Assembly (NCBI GenBank): GCA_964016885.1 | Contig: CAXHJY010000912.1 | Span: forward strand, 77,216 to 141,215 | Length of the DNA stretch: 64,000 nucleotides | Direction of reading: 5' to 3' | Source: Eledone cirrhosa | Lineage: Eukaryota | Shown here: piece by piece, positions 12,277 to 52,610 of the stretch | Layout of the letters: each line of letters starts with the position of its first letter | Position numbering within the stretch: the first letter of the stretch is position 1 | The notes under the pieces: model-generated | What the model was told of the DNA's origin: nothing | Database searches by the model: none | Seen by the model: the letters and a program-made list of their open reading frames with translations, nothing else | Position numbers and translations under genes: made by a program

Positions 12277-12968
12277 CGCAGGGTTTAAGGGTCAATGCTG
12301 TTGATGATAAGAAATGTTCGAGAAGATTGTGAGGGCTTGGATAGAGAATGTGAGCAAAGACTGTATGCCTTCCAAGAAGACTACACTATCTCAAAAGGCC
12401 AAGACGAACCAAGAATGGTTGAAGTACAATCTCCATGATCACATTACCCCAAACATATATCCTCCTAGCTATCCAGACCTGAATCCATTAGGCCACTACT
12501 GTACATACTCAAATATAAGCGCCCCTCCATATTTCATGTCTGAAAAATCCAAACCCTGTTTATAAACTGAGGCAGCTGATCAAAGCATTGTTTAGATGGC
12601 GTATATAAGCCAACCTCTCATTTTACGATCAATTTTTTTAGTCCCATATTCCTCAGCTTATTTTAGAGTATATACAGTAAATATGGGGTGTTGTTGAAAG
12701 GGAAGTCAAACAATACCCCCATAACACAATAAAATCTCTGAAGTCTACCATAACCGGCACAATGTCCAAAATAGATGAAGATCCTCTGATTCAGGCGTGT
12801 CAGACCTCGTATTGAAGCAGTCATCAATGCTAACAGTGGATTCATTGAGTAGATATGTCAAGAAGAGTATCAAGATTATTCATAGCATCCTTTCTTCTCA
12901 AATAAAGCTCTTCTTTTGTGACTTATGTGTGTTTGACTAAATTCATACAAAGAACTGTAGCAATCCTG
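12277..12968 (+). mobile_element. Degenerate Tc1/mariner-superfamily transposase remnant (maT/DD37D-like), interrupted by a MITE
   Basis: Fragments QGLRVNA, VRAWIENV, FQED, KAKTNQEWL, PPSYPDLNPL, then IWGVVEREV...HNT, RIEAVINANSGFIE*; catalytic spacing about 37 residues allowing for a frameshift. Confidence 0.8.
12499..12677. mobile_element. Tc1/mariner-superfamily MITE (Tc2/pogo-like TIR), TA TSD
   Basis: Imperfect TIRs CTGTACATACTCAAATATAAGC / GCTTATTTTAGAGTATATACAG flanked by TA on both sides. Confidence 0.8.
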
Positions 12969-13007
12969 TATATAAGTTTGTATATATATATATACATATA
13001 TATATAT

Positions 13008-13804
13008 AGTAATCCCCCTGGAGTATCTAACTGTAATCTTAGCTCTCTGCAGCGATCAAACTTTTTTCTTCATAATTTTATATACATGTCCTCTGTTTCA
13101 GGTCGTCAAGCAATGAGCACAGAGCAACGAACAAACTTGAAGTTTCTGGCACAGTTGGGGAAAACTCCATCAGAAGCACTGGGATTGCTGCAGCAAGTAT
13201 ATGGAGATGAGACGATGTCACGCTCACGTGTTTTTGAGTGGTGCAAGAGGTTTAAAGAAGGACACGAGGACGTGGAAGATGACCCCAGGAGCGGAAGGCC
13301 CTCAACAACCAGGACTGAGGTCAATGTTGAGCGCGTCAGGCAGATGGTGCGTAGCGATCGTCGGCTGACTGTTCGACTGATGGCAAATGAGCTGGGCATG
13401 AATCGGGACAGCGACTGGAATATTCTCACTGAAGATTTGGACATGCGGAAAGTCTGCGCGAAGATGGTGCCAAAACTGCTGAACAATGACCAGAAGGGTC
13501 GACGCATGCAAGTGCACCAGACTTGCTAGGGACAGTCATCACTGGTGATGAGTCATGGATCTTCGAGTACGATCCGGAGGGGACCCGTTTTGAAGACATG
13601 GACGACATCAAAAAGGCTGTGACGACGGAACTGCGGAGGATCCCGGAAGAATCCTTCCAGGAGTGCATGCAAGCATGGCAGAAAAGGATAGAAAAGTGCA
13701 TTACACTCCAGGGGGATTACTTTGAAGGAGAAAACTCAGTGTGAAGTTTGGGTTTGAAATAAATCTTTTGTGACATCAGTCCTGGAACTTTTCTGACACA
13801 CCTC

Positions 13805-13805
<1 letters not shown>
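13008..13805 (+). mobile_element. Mariner element, internally deleted and 5'-truncated (non-autonomous)
   Basis: Transposase motifs and right TIR CAGTCCTGGAACTTTTCTGACACACCTCG followed by TA. Confidence 0.92.
13113..13744 (+). pseudogene. Mariner transposase pseudogene
   Basis: HTH region MSTEQRTNLKF...WCKRFKEG...RSGRP, KMVPKLL (WVPREL-like), ITGDESW..YDPE joined directly to GTRF...GDYFEG; frameshift near 13520; second and third catalytic Asp regions absent. Confidence 0.92.
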
Positions 13806-13852
<47 letters not shown>

Positions 13853-13903
13853 AAATAAAATAAAATAAATAAGTCAAATGTTTAAAATTTGGCTTCGTTT
13901 ATT

Positions 13904-13958
13904 ACTGCTATATATATTTCGGTGACAGCCATCTTTAGCTGTGACCTCTTCAGGCAGT
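13904..13958 (-). ncRNA. Minimal type I hammerhead ribozyme, intact core
   Basis: Minus strand ACTGC CTGAAGA GGTCACAGCTA AAGA TGGCTGTCACC GAAA TATATA TA GCAGT: stem I ACTGC/GCAGT, CUGANGA, 11-bp stem II, GAAA, short stem III with palindromic loop, UA cleavage site. Confidence 0.8.
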
Positions 13959-14096
13959 TCGAATTAGTGTGGTAGAGACGAGTACACATGTTGTTGAGGT
14001 GTATAACTTTGTCAATACTCTGATATGCATATCAGAGTATTGACAAAGTTATACACCTCAACAACATGTGTACTCGTCTCTCCCACACTAATTCGA

Positions 14097-14151
14097 ACTG
14101 CCTGAAGAGGTCACAGCCAAAGATGGCTGTCACTGAATTATATATAGCAGT
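14097..14151 (+). ncRNA. Hammerhead ribozyme copy with core mutation (GAAA to GAAT)
   Basis: ACTGC CTGAAGA GGTCACAGCCA AAGA TGGCTGTCACT GAAT TATATA TA GCAGT. Confidence 0.65.
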
Positions 14152-14312
14152 AATAAACGAAGCCAAATTTTAGACATTTGACTTATTTATTTTATTTTAT
14201 ATTACTCCGGAGTAACCAAACCAACCTGCGCACTTCGTCGAGTGCTCCAATCTGCATACTGAGGTGTTGGTATACAACCAACATATACTCAAAATTTATG
14301 TGTATGTATGTG

Positions 14313-14351
<39 letters not shown>

Positions 14352-15525
14352 TGTGTCGTGTGTGTGTGTGTACCCACACACATACACAAAGAAAGAGAGG
14401 AGTGAGAGATAAAAATATTTTTTTGCATTGAATAAATCAGGTATTGTCCAAACTCTGAATTGATCAAAGAATGATGTACTCTGCTGTCCTATATTGAAAT
14501 ATTATTAAATAAATGAAAAATTATAAGATATTGAGTGATGCCATTCTTTGCAATGAATATTAAAACTGCTACAATTTCCAAGAAACCTATTTTCATCTAC
14601 TCATTTATTTTGTTCTTCCTTCTTTACTTCTCTTCTTCTTTACCATCTTTCTGTAGAAGATTTGTGAATGAGTATAGTGACCTAGTTATATATAAATATA
14701 AGAAGATATTCTTATATTTATTACTTTCCTCGTTGCCCATAAAATATTCATAATTTTACAGCAGCAACTCCTCTCTATTAATAGGTTCCACATCTCACCT
14801 CACAGACACAGAACTGCAAATAGTTTAAGTATGCAATAAAAGTAAATTTAGAGTCGAATGCTTTTTGTGTTTTAAATTAACAATAAGCAAAATGCACTTG
14901 TCATTTGTCCAGTTCTTGGCCAATATTTCACTGATGATAATAAGCTAAACATTTTCAAATATTTTAAATGTTTTATAGTTCTCAGCAACTGTTTATTAAC
15001 CCCTTAAGTATGGACATACATACTATACTACATATTCTTAAGTGATTGAAAAGATAATATTATTGCTCTTATTTATTATTATGTACATTAACAAGAACGA
15101 AAGAAAAAAAATTAAATTGCTACTAAAGTGTTGTCCACCTTTAAAACTATATATATACATATGATACACATACATACATATATACACACATATATATATA
15201 CACATATACATATATATATATACACATACATACATATAGATACATACACACATATATATATATACACACATATATATATATACACATATACATAAATATA
15301 TACACACATATATACATACATACATGTATCATCATCATCATCATTGCCATCACTTCTACGTCAACTTTTCCATACCGACATAGGTTGGGTGGGACATTTT
15401 AAGGCAATGTTTTACAGCCAGATGCCTTTCCTGACACTAACCCTTTTAGATGCTTCTTACGACATGCAGGGAAACAATGTTACTACACTAAACCAGTTGT
15501 GTGTGTGTGTATGTGTGTGTATGTG

Positions 15526-28634: not shown

Positions 28635-29155
28635 AGGGTGGTGGATTGGCAGAATCAGTAGAGTGTCGGACATCATACTTTGCAGCATAGAGTTAAGGCC
28701 CTCTACGGTCTGAGTTCTAATCCTGCTGGGGTTAATTTTGCTTTTTGTCCTTGTGGGGTCAATAAAATAAAGTACCAGTAACACACTCGGGGTCAATTTA
28801 ATCGACTTTCCCCTCTCCCCAAAATTTGGGCCTTGTGCCTATGGTAGAAATCATTAGTATCATTAATTCAGCCAAGGTTAACTTTGCCTTTCATCCTTAC
28901 GGGGTCGATAAAATAAAGTACCAGTAATGCACTGGGATAATTACTGACTTGTGCCAAAATAGAAACAATTATCATTATTATTAGTTATTGTTATTGTTTT
29001 TGTTGTTATTATTATATTGGCAATATCGGTAGAGCATCAGAAAACATGCTTTGCGGCATAGGGCATGGTTCTTTACATTCTGAGTTCCAATCCCGCCAAG
29101 GTTAGCTTACAGGGTCAATGCAATAAGGCACCAGTAACGCAGTGGGGTTGATTTG
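28635..29155 (+). mobile_element. Cluster of three family A SINE copies
   Basis: Full copy 28635-28852, 5'-truncated short-tail copy, third deleted copy. Confidence 0.85.
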
Positions 29156-29165
29156 GGACACCATG

Positions 29166-29719
29166 CTCTCTATATCTTACCATTACAAATATTCAAGGCT
29201 AGGTTTCCAACTTGAGGATACCTACCTCTCTACATCTTACCATTACAAATATTCAAGGCTAGGTTTCTAACTTGAGGATACCTACCTCTCTACATCTTAC
29301 CATTACAAATATTCAAGGCTAGGTTTCTAACTTGAGGATACCTACCTCTCTACATCTTACCATTACAAATATTCAAGGCTAGGTTTCCAACTTGAGGATA
29401 CCTACCTCTCTACATCTTACCATTACAAATATTCAAGGCTAGGTTTCCAACTTGAGGATACCTACCTCTCTACATCTTACCATTACAAATATTCAAGGCT
29501 AGGTTTCTAACTTGAGGATACCTACCTCTCTACATCTTACCATTACAAATATTCAAGGCTAGGTTTCTAACTTGAGGATACCTACCTCTCTACATCTTAC
29601 CATTACAAATATTCAAGGCTAGGTTTCCAACTTGAGGATACCTATCTCTCTACATCTTACCATTACAAATATTCAAGGCTAGGTTTCTAACATGAAGATA
29701 CCTACCTCTCTACATCTTA
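29166..29719. repeat. 60-bp minisatellite, about 9 copies
   Basis: Unit CCTACCTCTCTACATCTTACCATTACAAATATTCAAGGCTAGGTTTCYAACTTGAGGATA, near-identical copies. Confidence 0.97.
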
Positions 29720-31904
29720 TCTGTTGTGGAGACCTAGAAATAGGTCATGGGCACTGGCCTTCCCACCCTAATTATAACAGTTTTAAAAAATAATAATTCA
29801 TAAAATATTAACGAAGTAAAATTAAAAATACTAACAAGTTCAATTAACATTTCCACATTATTTTCTGATCTGAAGAACACACGTGCGCACAACCATTGCA
29901 CATAAAAACCTGAAATGATGCACTGTAAGCATGCATACAGTGCTATTCCTTTTGTATATCTTTAGAAGGTTTAACTAATTTAAACTTTAAAAATCACAGG
30001 CGAAGTTTTCCAATGATAAAACAAATAATAATAATAAAGACTATGAGTATTATTTCATTACAGGTAATTTCCAATCAACTGAATTAATGGCCTAATTATA
30101 CTGTAAACAACAATCAAAATTCAATTTCTTAAATTAAAAAAAAAAAGCATTTAAAAATATTTCTCTAAAATTCAAAACCACCTTAAATTATGTTACCATA
30201 TATAAATTACACAGTATTTAATGAAAGAAAACAGATTGTTGCCTTGAGTTAGGTATTAAAAATAAACATTGTAAACATCATCTACATAAATTAGTTCAAA
30301 TTGAGAAATTATTTCCCCCCCCCCCTCCCCTTTTTTGTTTCTTTGTATGAACATGATTAGTTTAATATATATTCGTTTAAAAATCACACACATACACACA
30401 CCAATTTATACAGGCACTAAAGAAAAACAAGATTTCTTTTCAAATATATAGAATATCTAACTAAATATGATTAAATATATTAAAGAATCCATCTAAATTA
30501 ATTCAAGACATAAATGCTGGAAAAGCATTATACACACATGATTATATATAACTACTGCCGCCATCACTCACAATCAAGTATGACTTGGTAGTGTGTACCA
30601 TGCTTTCACTAAGAGTTTGCATTGCCTATGCAGTTTGTGAGTAGACACCTTTTCAACCTTCCCATCTTTGATCCAATGAAACATTAAGAATGTGGTAGCT
30701 AGAAAGGAAGATGTCTGCACCTGCACTAGACTAGTCTTTTTTTTTTTTTATTGGCCCTAGAGGGATATATGGCAAATGAAATTAACCTAGGATAGGGCTT
30801 GAACTGAGAACAAATATTCAACACTCTTATGACTTCGCCAAATTGACCACCCATATGTGGGTTTGAGCAGTTTGTGTCAGAAAAGACAACTGGCTGTAAA
30901 ACATTGTCTCAAAAAGTCTCATCTAACTCATGTCTGCATGGTAAACTCCATATAAAAATGGTGCTGATGATGATATATTACACACACACACTATCATCAT
31001 CATCATCATCGTTTAACAACTATTTTTCATGATTGCATGGGTTAGATAACTAAAACATTCTGAGGACAGACTTGTCAGGTGCTTAGCTCCTTCTAGTATG
31101 CTTTGTTCTGGCTTGATTTCTATGGTCGGATGCACTTTACAGCATATACTGAGAGCATAGTTTCTACAGCTGTATGAATGTATATATGTGTTTGTCTCTG
31201 TGTGTGTGAGTCTGTAATCTTACATGAAATATCAAATGCATTTTGAATAAATAATGAAAGATTCAGATGTGGTTGTGAAGTGTAATTATTATAAAGAGTC
31301 TCCATTGGTCTGTTCTGATCATGTGATGGTGTTGAATGGTCAGTGACCAGTGTTTCTTGGTTGCTGACCACCACAAAAAAGTTAGGCAGCCTGGTGTAAT
31401 TAAATAAATGCCATATTAACTAATTTCAAGCCACTGATTCTTGCCACCCAACAAAGATCACCATAGCCCCACCTGACACATTTGGTGGTGGGGCACATAC
31501 ATGTATACCTAAATGGAAGGATGCCTGTATTAATCACACAGTGACATCAGACATGTAGACATCAGAGGTGAGATGGATTTTGTCAGTCTGCCTTGCAACT
31601 AATCTCAGAATGACCAATGTCTTATAAGTGAATGTGGTAGATAGTATGTGTGAGGAAATAAGTTGTGTATATGCATGTCAGTTGCCACAAGTGCTTTTAT
31701 ATTTACACTGTTTACATACCCACCTTCAAAATATGGAGTATAGGTTGGCATAAAGAAGGGCGGCATCCAGGAACCATATTGATATACAGAGTTTCTAGGA
31801 CATTTTAAAACCTGGCAGAGACCATCTCCTCTCCAGATCTGAATACAGTAGTAAGATATATATATAGAGAGAGAAAGGAAGTGAGAAAGATATATAGTGA
31901 AAGA

Positions 31905-34268: not shown

Positions 34269-34489
34269 CCCTTTAGCATTTAAACCGGCCATATCCAACC
34301 AGAATTCTCTCACCTCATTTTGTTCAAACCAGCCATAACTGACCACTCATACTGATGTTAAGGTGCTGTTCTCAAAATAAAAGATATCAAAACCTCATAG
34401 ATTCGATATTATGTGAGATAATAATGTGAGATGAAGTGTTTACCATAAAAATACAATAGTAAATATAGGGTAATGTAAATGTTAAAGGG
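34269..34489. mobile_element. piggyBac-type MITE (TTAA TSD, CCCTTTAGCATTT TIR)
   Basis: TTAA-CCCTTTAGCATTTA ... TAAATGTTAAAGGG-TTAA; five further related copies. Confidence 0.85.
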
Positions 34490-34744
34490 TTAAGCAAGTA
34501 ATATTCTTGCATAGAGAATATTTTCTATAGCTTAAAGGTTCAGCAATTATCAGCAGTATAAGGACCATACTTGAAAATATAGTATAGGTCGGCATGGAAA
34601 AGAACATACAGCCATAAAACACTGTCTCAAAAAGTCTTGTCCAATCCATGCCTGCATCAAAAAGCTTGGATGTACTAAACAAGCTTGATTAAATTAACTA
34701 CACTTTTCTCTTTCAAATGTATATGGCCTTGCGCCAGCTTAGAA

Positions 34745-41741: not shown

Positions 41742-42787
41742 TATCTACAGACACACTGAGTATGAGTGTAATTGAACATAATATGGTTTGAACAGAGAAG
41801 AATTTTCTGTAAACGAATCAAGTAAAATATACACCAGAAGGAAATAATAGAATTTGAACCTACATCTTGGAAAACTTTAGTAGTAGAAGAGGTAGGAACC
41901 ATAGAATTCTTAACTACTCTCACTTTACATGTTAAACATCAGATTAGACCATTAAAGTTGAAAACTCACAGCTGTTAACCATATTTGAACTAATTCTCCT
42001 TCCTGTAAGGAGTCAGCTTCTGGAATAAACTAGGCCATTTAAATCTCACAATAAGATGGTTGTTGCTGTATACCCCCCCCCCCCATTCCAACCCTGACCC
42101 CCCAATCTACCTCTCCCCCACCACCCCCTGCTTCTCTTCATCTCTTGTTATATAGCATTTCTTCTTTTCCTTGTTACACAGATGGAAATGTGAAAGATTT
42201 GAAGAGAAGATATTTGAAAACAAATGACCGAAAATGCCTACTGAGGAGAAAGAGGAATGCTGGGAAAGCAGACCCCCCCCCCCAATATTTCCTCTATTTT
42301 GGATATGTGCAATGTGTGAGTGAGTGTGTGCATGTGTGTATTACAAATGATAACTAACTGGCAGTGAGTGCAGTGTGAATCTTAATGAGAAAAGCCATAA
42401 CCTCAAAAGTTTAATTTGATTTAGCGAGGAGATAAGTAAAAAATCTATTAGAATGATTTCCAAGAAATATGTCTCAGTTATTGTAATGCAATGCTATCTA
42501 CATCCAAATCGCATCATAACCATTTAATATACTAAGACATTTTATTTATTAACCCATTTGATAACGACCTACTTGGAAGCAGTTTGGATTTACGATACAA
42601 AATTGCTCATTTTAAAATATACTTATATTAAAACCTTTCATCAAATTTTTTTTATTTATGTAGTGTTCAGATTAGTACTGAAAATATCAGATTAGTATTG
42701 AAAAAACTTTGTCATTGAATTATATTTGAAAATTAATTGAAACATATGCAGTGAATTTCATTAGAAATACGCAAACAATAGGCTTAA

Positions 42788-42984
42788 CCCTTTAGCATTC
42801 ACATTACTCTATATGTACTATTATATTTTCATGGTAAAGGCTTTACCTCGCATAATTATCTCACATAATATCGAATCTATGAGATTTTGAAAGTATTTAT
42901 TTTGAGAACAATACCGTAACATCAGTTTCAACAGAAAAAGGTAGAGTATTCTGGCTGGTTTTGGCCGGTTTGAACATTAAAGGG
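42788..42984. mobile_element. piggyBac-type MITE
   Basis: TTAA-CCCTTTAGCATT ... TAAAGGG-TTAA; opposite orientation to the 34269 copy. Confidence 0.85.
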
Positions 42985-51454: not shown

Positions 51455-51516
51455 AGAAGGGGGGGGGGGGATATTTACATATATATATACACAGGGAGAG
51501 AGAGAGGGGGGATATT

Positions 51517-51562
<46 letters not shown>

Positions 51563-52610
51563 AATATCCCCCCTCTCTCTCTCCCTGTGTATATATATGT
51601 GTATATATATATATATTTATATATATATATATACACCCAGAGAGAGAGAGACTCTTGCATTGATGTTAGCCCCTCACCCCACCCCACCCAATACAGACAA
51701 AAGAGAAAGAAAATCAACTTTGAAGGTGTATAACAAATATAATGGAAACACATTGTTTTTATTTGGTGGGAAGTGGGGAAAGAGTCACAAGCAAAAGGTA
51801 GCTGCTTTTGTCAATTCAACTTGTGATTGAATACTTCTGATCTCCAAATATAAGTGATTTTGTCAAAAGCTATCATCATCATCATCATCATCACCAGCAG
51901 CAGCTTTCAGCTTAACATGAATTTTCTCTGCTTCCAGATTGTTCTACTGGTTTATCACCATATGTCCATGTATGTTTGTATTAGACATTTGTACTATTTC
52001 TCTTATTGAAAATGACAAGCATCACAAACATGGAATAAGTGGTGAAGACAAATAAATATTAATTACAATATAAACCTGTTGTAGACCTCCTCTTCCTCCT
52101 CCTTACTTTCTTACACAGGCAGTTGACTGTCATCAACTTGGTGTCTTTAACCCTTTCATTGACATGTCTCTTGTGAAAGACACTGCTTATGCTTTTCAAA
52201 TAATCAAACATTTGCAGAGACTTTGTTATTATATATGAATAACTTCCCCATTATTAATCTTATATCTGGAACAAAGATTCTTACAGAAAATTATGATGGA
52301 AGGTTTTAAGATAAAGCAAACAGTCTTGTGACATAGAATCAGGGGTCATTACTGCTCGTGGTTCAACAATACTGTTTATTTTAAAGTAATTTATGTATGT
52401 CAAAAAAGAAAAAGACCTCCCACTATAATTTTAAATAAGAACCTTTGTTAAACAGCATCTTAATAATGAAAAAGTTATTTATATTGGTAAATCCTTCCAA
52501 AGTTTTGATTATTTTGAAAATGATTTAAAAATCAGAGACAGCATCTTTCATTAAAAATATGGTATTGAAATAGTTAAACAAATAATACAAGAGTTCTTTC
52601 ACTATTGAAA

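Follow-up and report, generated by a model that had tools for sequence, protein, structure and literature searches.

A folded-back piece of an abundant hammerhead family in Eledone cirrhosa DNA, most likely left by a Penelope-like element insertion

In the window analysed here, the whole stretch of 64,000 nucleotides of Eledone cirrhosa DNA, we confirm a palindrome with hammerhead motifs on both strands and find it to be a piece of a repeat family of very high abundance. We consider it very probable that this piece, 5'-truncated, mirror-duplicated and placed between two microsatellites, belongs to a high-copy hammerhead family and is most likely the dead by-product of one insertion of a Penelope-like element (PLE), whose ribozyme would not cut a read-through transcript. 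A preliminary description of the same DNA had noticed the palindrome and its ribozymes without recognising that they form a truncated, folded-back insertion from a high-copy family, tailed on one side only, a pattern already in print. The arrangement has already been described in other animals and is probably inert here, the tail of about 95 nt being the only oddity of the stub.

When the letters were compared base by base outward from 14027/14028, the centre of the loopless palindrome, the arms paired with five mismatches over the first 173 pairs (13973/14082, 13937/14118, 13921/14134, 13917/14138 and 13882/14173), which bears out the arm length, centre and mismatch count given in the preliminary description. 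A sixth mismatch is pair 174, and arm pairing is lost beyond pair 177. No inverted repeat of the window is longer than the palindrome (177 nt, 97%, spacer of 0 nt), whose arms diverge by 2.9% at 13855-14200. The element had been taken to end at 14200, which is wrong: on the right, family sequence continues to 14299, so that the insertion extends from about 13848 to 14299 and holds about 270 nt of element length. No further copy of the palindrome arm was found by blastn within the window, where T-rich matches only were returned. The runner-up among palindromes of the 64-kb window has 71 bp per arm and is largely simple repeat; it lies at 51469-51610, its centre is a (TA)n tract, and it is made of G, GA and TA simple repeats plus a short unique stretch that recurs once just upstream. 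Two other repeats were seen in the window, a tandem array at 29036-29839 with about 13 copies of a 60-bp unit (core 96-98% alike) and an inverted pair of 145 nt (34351-34495 / 42782-42926) whose members, 86% complementary and 8.3 kb from each other, probably represent a dispersed repeat.

Table 1. Features of the folded-back insertion and of the DNA next to it (positions in the window)
Feature	Position	Strand	Remarks
Decayed mariner, left end truncated	13005..13805	+	Pfam HTH_48 E=1e-07, HTH_32 E=2.5e-08 in 12906-13526
(TA)21 microsatellite	13806..13847		Left part of likely target; starts at TA closing the mariner end
Left arm	13848..14027	-	Inverted 5'-truncated copy of element 3' region; TATTT repeats into (TA)n; without tail
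Intact minimal type I hammerhead motif	13904..13958	-	Predicted cut between 13909 and 13908
Open 48-codon frame through hammerhead	14027..14173	+	Stop 14171-14173; mirrored 13882-14028 on -
Right arm	14028..14204	+	Element 3' region, direct orientation, truncated at 14027/14028
Hammerhead twin	14097..14151	+	A15.1 to U at 14138 (private to right arm); U at position 11.1 (14134, common in family)
One-sided tail of about 95 nt	14205..14299	+	Family sequence to family 3' end; non-repetitive
AT/TG microsatellite	14298..14371		Right part of likely target site

The hammerhead core nucleotides together with the three stems are present in the minus arm only. From 13958 to 13904 a 5-bp stem I, CUGAAGA, stem II, GAA, the A15.1-U16.1 pair and A17 make up a complete core, and a hammerhead descriptor run on both strands of the 64 kb matched this stretch only, while shuffled windows gave 0.1 matches each (20 Markov shuffles). 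In this sense, both the descriptor search and the fold confirm the complete core that had been claimed for the minus-strand arm. Stem II, first given as 11 bp, does cover 11 positions but consists of 10 pairs plus a C.C mismatch. Stem III has 2 bp within a self-complementary stretch that is indeed present, but is 8 nt long (AUAUAUAU) and not the 6 nt of the palindromic TATATA first reported. The plus-strand twin (14097-14151) has lost the A15.1-U16.1 pair through the change at 14138, and the GAAA to GAAT change described for it holds. Covariance models, named beforehand as a way to check the motif, did not support it: Rfam returned no hammerhead match over the window at gathering score (0 matches), and none among 44 matches over 13700-14400 at E<=10, all of them below the gathering score and the best being generic miRNA hairpin models. 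We rejected these sub-threshold miRNA-model matches at the palindrome as generic hairpin likeness. Stem changes between the arms comprise two one-sided compatible changes and none two-sided, and no compensatory double change in the hammerhead stems is visible in the two arms and the family data, which are per-site tables and not whole sequences. The hammerhead is conserved family-wide: of the variable sites listed (40 of 91 rows), 4 are in its 55 nt and 33 in the remaining 205 nt.

Sequencing runs were aligned to 13996-14306 (311 bp) at 80% likeness, four of the 22 listed being used (X1, X5, X20 and X4). X1 is possibly the source of the assembly and hence not independent, X5 is another sample of the same organism and of unstated kind, X20 consists of RAD-seq raw reads under the same species label, and X4 is another organism. 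The records that matched the reference were 3228 contigs in X1 and 198 in X5, 7419 reads in X20 and 38 contigs in X4 (summed depths on the 311-bp reference are not copy numbers), and these thousands of records, X4 included, indicate an abundant repeat common to at least two organisms. Among the loose ends listed, 536 X20 reads, 4 X5 contigs and 2 X4 contigs run on 5' of 14027 into one other sequence, which they share (agreement of the X20 5' consensus beyond 14027, 0.87). Thus the family continues there, and the centre of the palindrome is the truncation point of this copy and not a family feature. At the opposite end, depth reaches 14299 in 4/4 runs and AT repeats come after it in 4/4; the AT-repeat loose ends behind 14299, among those listed, are 565 X20 reads and 39, 2 and 1 contigs of X1, X5 and X4, respectively. 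Therefore the element includes 14205-14299, and the family has its 3' end at 14299, against (AT)n. At least 12 X1 and at least 4 X5 contigs leave the reference at 14184 with AT repeats within 30 letters, which indicates that the end point of the left arm is approximately that of some other copies too. Family depth declines toward the 5' side, as for truncated long elements.

The same runs show how the two arms have aged. The arm mismatches sort as expected for arms aged separately, with the family-majority letter carried by the minus arm at three of the five (14082, 14138 and 14173) and both letters common at one (14134, in a CpG, where C accounts for 37% of X1 depth and 1701/3948 X20 reads); 14118 is absent among the 40 of 91 variable-site rows listed. 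Since the family keeps A at 14138 (99.98% of X1 depth, 3866/3910 X20 reads), the broken GAAU of the plus twin is private decay. Three further candidates were discarded. A short 80-bp subfamily drawn from X20 end pile-ups (14090, 14093, 14169 and 14296) was rejected, 4/4 of them being at AATT sites with flank agreement of 0.35-0.38, and we attribute the pile-ups to restriction cutting of the RAD library. The support for three 'opposite strand' joints (3 reads, 1 contig and 6 reads) was too thin for use, and the single metagenome pattern match, on a contig that looks bacterial and has a short repeat outside any hammerhead context, was put down to chance.

As regards the site of insertion, the mariner of Table 1 is an unrelated neighbour, at whose right end lies the (TA)n that harbours the PLE stub. 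The mariner contains a 17-bp inverted match (13008-13024/13705-13721); its right end is intact, about 17 bp of its left inverted repeat are left, and (TA)n stands on both sides of it. Between the flanks of the insertion no direct repeat of 7 bp or more was found. The left arm may have lost its tail after insertion. Three small hairpins lie in the tail region (14202-14290). One is a perfect palindrome of 14 bp at the point where the arms cease to be symmetrical (14202-14215), and another, an AC-rich stem-loop close to the 3' end, resembles the priming region of the anole element. The 14-bp palindrome was considered as a Hydra-type stem III and set aside, as no hammerhead core stands before it.

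A PLE (EN+) was recognised by an ORF with RT and GIY-YIG, a sense-strand type I hammerhead in the terminal repeat, 5' truncation with an inverted copy, a tail of 30-40 bp and an AT-rich or (TA)n target. The stub shows the terminal-repeat hammerhead on the sense strand, the 5' truncation with an adjacent inverted copy and the (TA)n target, whereas its one-sided extension is about 95 nt vs 30-40 bp and RT or GIY-YIG sequence was not recovered, the window having only about 270 nt of element. The stub is most likely a folded-back PLE insertion whose PLE membership is incomplete, the parent RT/endonuclease ORF not having been recovered. Such insertions have been described as comprising an inverted 5'-truncated copy and a tail of 30-40 bp, with (TA)n as target and no TSD to be seen (Craig et al., 2021, PMC8557442); the same tail length is given in PMC3846280 and PMC11167929. 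Arkhipova et al. (2013, PMC3846280) explain repeats that meet head to head in a junction palindrome by self-priming of the antisense strand, and according to PMC11167929 a PLE nicks an AT-rich target and is primed internally, near the RNA 3' end. The stub resembles EN+ PLE insertion units (PMC3846280, PMC8557442) in its palindromic head-to-head junction, one-arm extension, hammerhead in the repeat and lack of a discernible TSD in a microsatellite target; it differs in the longer extension, in having about 270 nt of element only and in the parent ORF not recovered.

The form of the ribozyme points in the same direction. Cervera and de la Peña (2014, PMC4209133) found minimal hammerheads in pairs, one on each strand and 100-700 bp apart, and attributed them to truncated PLEs. 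The metazoan PLE hammerheads presented there share with the stub the full core, short stem I, long stem II, small palindromic stem III, dimer-type fold and opposite-strand pair, while the stem II of the stub is longer (10 pairs and the C.C mismatch vs 7-8 bp) and its fold is without the unpaired base between A9 and G10.1. This hammerhead form and the insertion pattern support the connection with Penelope-like terminal repeats made in the preliminary description (PMC4209133). Among Hydra-clade PLEs (Penelope-13_HM and Hydra-1_Obim, within Files S1 and S2 of PMC8557442), insertion in (TA)n and a hammerhead within about 200 nt of the 3' end are common with the stub, and Penelope-13_HM, listed in File S2 with a hammerhead on both strands, also shares the inverted 5'-truncated copy. 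However, Hydra-clade stem III starts with AC, stem II has 3-7 bp and the motifs lie in the 3' UTR (PMC8557442), whereas the stub motif differs and is possibly in coding sequence. Marks of this clade are the Hydra-type hammerhead of File S2, an EN without CCHH and the CxCX5C linker, the last two belonging to the ORF that was not recovered for the stub; by eye, the stub motif differs from all the File S2 motifs, Hydra-1_Obim included, and its core-stem II 13-mer gave 0 matches in the supplement text of PMC8557442. We therefore place the stub in no particular clade. For the giant squid, PMC6962438 lists 235 hammerhead loci and Penelope elements. Neither the family of the stub nor its tail of about 95 nt was found in our literature searches, none of which was aimed at tail lengths and whose scope left Repbase and most supplements aside.

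The insertion model that we favour is based on what was observed: the copy is truncated and mirrored, its 3' ends are unequal, with only the right arm extending to 14299, and it is flanked by microsatellites. According to the model, the element endonuclease would nick the (TA)n/(TG)n tract, and reverse transcription would start at the family 3' end and stop after about 270 nt at 14028. The cDNA end would then fold back or re-prime on itself and be copied outward again, the second copying stopping about 95 nt short, in the TATTT run, and joining (TA)n. Repair would unfold the hairpin into the head-to-head palindrome, whose arms would have drifted 2.9% apart after insertion. That there is a hammerhead in each arm reflects nothing more than the location of the motif within the terminal repeat.

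The open frame that runs through the motif is possibly the end of the parent ORF, which we take as a hint from the pattern of family changes. Nine of 17 changes are synonymous in the 14027 frame (25% expected, p=0.013 uncorrected) and 0/17 in the other open frame, the count comprising 17 changes among those listed, at 15 sites in 14047-14096, with the private site 14082 dropped. An in-frame stop in the 5' family consensus, 9 codons upstream of this frame, counts against coding, and the 48-aa peptide had no match in Pfam or protein searches. It is unlikely, in our opinion, that the stub represents an undescribed PLE lineage with a tail of about 95 nt, a hammerhead inside the ORF end and insertions that routinely fold into perfect hairpins, which, where transcribed, would make up a sizeable class of dsRNA, edited by ADAR or diced, that silences the family. 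The synonymous bias in the frame through the motif and the higher number of A>G/T>C sites in X5, whose kind is unstated, than in X1 (23/51 vs 13/39, p=0.18; vs X20, p=0.15), a difference short of significance, are weak hints toward such a lineage. At 14151, X5 shows T>C in 14% of depth (23 contigs) vs 0.02% in X1 and about 2% in X20; this would read as an antisense A-to-G change if X5 were RNA, and an 8-nt insertion variant adjoins it.

Type I hammerheads in short abundant repeats are also known from non-LTR retrozymes (Cervera and de la Peña, 2020, PMC7229834), which are head-to-tail tandems of 150-450 bp, whereas the copies of the stub are head to head, truncated and single. A short non-autonomous hammerhead element, either a retrozyme-like monomer or a SINE-like derivative, moved by a PLE enzyme and folded back in the same way, would agree with the very high copy number and with the fact that no ORF was recovered, and retrozymes have been argued to derive from PLE terminal repeats (bioRxiv 10.64898/2026.07.22.740005). 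We nonetheless regard it as quite improbable. No tandem unit was found at the locus and no head-to-tail tandem or further copy in the window, there is no go-back joint among the joints listed (though the 311-bp reference may be shorter than the unit), the synonymous bias 5' of the hammerhead suggests coding ancestry, and the fall of depth toward the 5' side is that of truncated long elements.

A mirror copy could also be of host origin, if a single truncated copy had been inserted first and DNA repair had later made the inverted duplication. The unrelated palindrome of 71 bp per arm at 51469-51610 suggests that host processes may build such structures; at the stub, however, the centre coincides exactly with the truncation point of the element, the duplication takes in none of the flanking host DNA and the left arm has an end point that occurs in some other copies too, which makes this history very unlikely compared with folding back during insertion.

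What the folded-back PLE insertion would do if transcribed can be approached through predicted energies. Stem III of the minus-arm monomer is predicted to be unstable (+2.7 kcal/mol), and a homodimer is predicted at -37.8 vs 2 x -15.3 kcal/mol (-30.6) for two monomers, with the 8-nt palindrome giving an 8-bp intermolecular stem III. The minimal hammerhead found here is predicted to need a second sense copy as partner. In the experiments of PMC4209133, single minimal hammerhead motifs gave no cleavage and dimers low cleavage, and these data and the predicted homodimer agree with the dimer-type hammerhead proposed in the preliminary description; the anole PLE motif cleaved only with protein (PMC11167929). 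As the arms lie head to head, the antisense copy is transcribed before the ribozyme on either strand. The hairpin is predicted at -330.7 vs -257.9 kcal/mol with the hammerhead stems enforced for the whole region (ahead by about 73), and at -254.0 vs -188.9 kcal/mol when the hammerhead has just been completed (ahead by about 65). Since the antisense arm comes first, the hairpin is favoured by 65-73 kcal/mol and the hammerhead needs a partner, dsRNA is the likely product: as predicted, the ribozyme would not cut the read-through transcript, and the product, if transcribed, would be about 175 bp of dsRNA. The original proposal was that a transcript either self-cleaves or folds; dsRNA of similar length is indeed predicted, but the choice is lopsided in favour of the hairpin. 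Its siRNA part was already published, as PLE inverted repeats gave matching siRNAs in transgenic Drosophila (PMC3681739).

Independently of how it arose, this copy could have been recruited to control a host transcript, either through cleavage or as a hairpin that is edited or diced. On the plus strand AT skew is 0.029-0.082 and positive in 8/8 blocks, which fits minus-strand transcription, and the intact motif is on the minus strand; the Drosophila siRNAs from PLE inverted repeats (PMC3681739) would fit as well. The intact copy may be on the host sense strand, but no host exon was found in the frames scanned and GC skew is also positive, in 6/8 blocks. The excess of A over T on the plus strand in all eight 8-kb blocks (simple repeats masked) is possible inside a long minus-strand intron, with no exon identified. 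By Pfam, no host exon was seen in 247/820 stop-to-stop frames of the window (filtered by GC, complexity and composition), where only mariner HTH matches were above the cut-offs and three sub-threshold matches were ignored. Moreover, one intact arm of two is the outcome expected of neutral decay, cleavage is disfavoured by the predicted folding energies, and the insertion is young, as its arms are 97% alike, so that we give co-option very little credence.

Physical support for the fold-back at 13848-14299 is indirect. Among the records listed from X1, X5, X20 and X4 none crosses 14027/14028, and X20 depth is 0 over 13996-14006, as would be seen if the palindrome were an assembly or library fold-back artefact of one arm. 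RAD libraries sample few loci, and short-read contigs break at perfect palindromes. The missing X20 cover at the centre is thus expected from a reduced-representation library and from contigs breaking there, and speaks neither for nor against the locus. The arms differ by five substitutions, most of them sorting a family letter from a private one, and the arms end at different, family-typical places, so an artefact is extremely unlikely. Finally, that the palindrome itself is the mobile unit, MITE- or foldback-like with a fixed centre and a ribozyme per strand, as its compact, self-contained look and terminal inverted T-rich ends might suggest, has a practically negligible probability and is largely refuted, because family reads leave the reference at 14027 with a different sequence, the right end lies 95 nt beyond the symmetry and neither a fixed palindromic unit nor a TSD of 7 bp or more was found at the locus.

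As a dead insertion, the single locus described here matters little. A clean PLE junction, with zero spacer and its centre at the truncation point, is of use for testing how the inverted copy forms, and a one-sided extension of about 95 nt would widen the known tail range, if found genome-wide. Furthermore, many such hairpins transcribed in a heavily editing animal could, if true, constitute a notable source of dsRNA.
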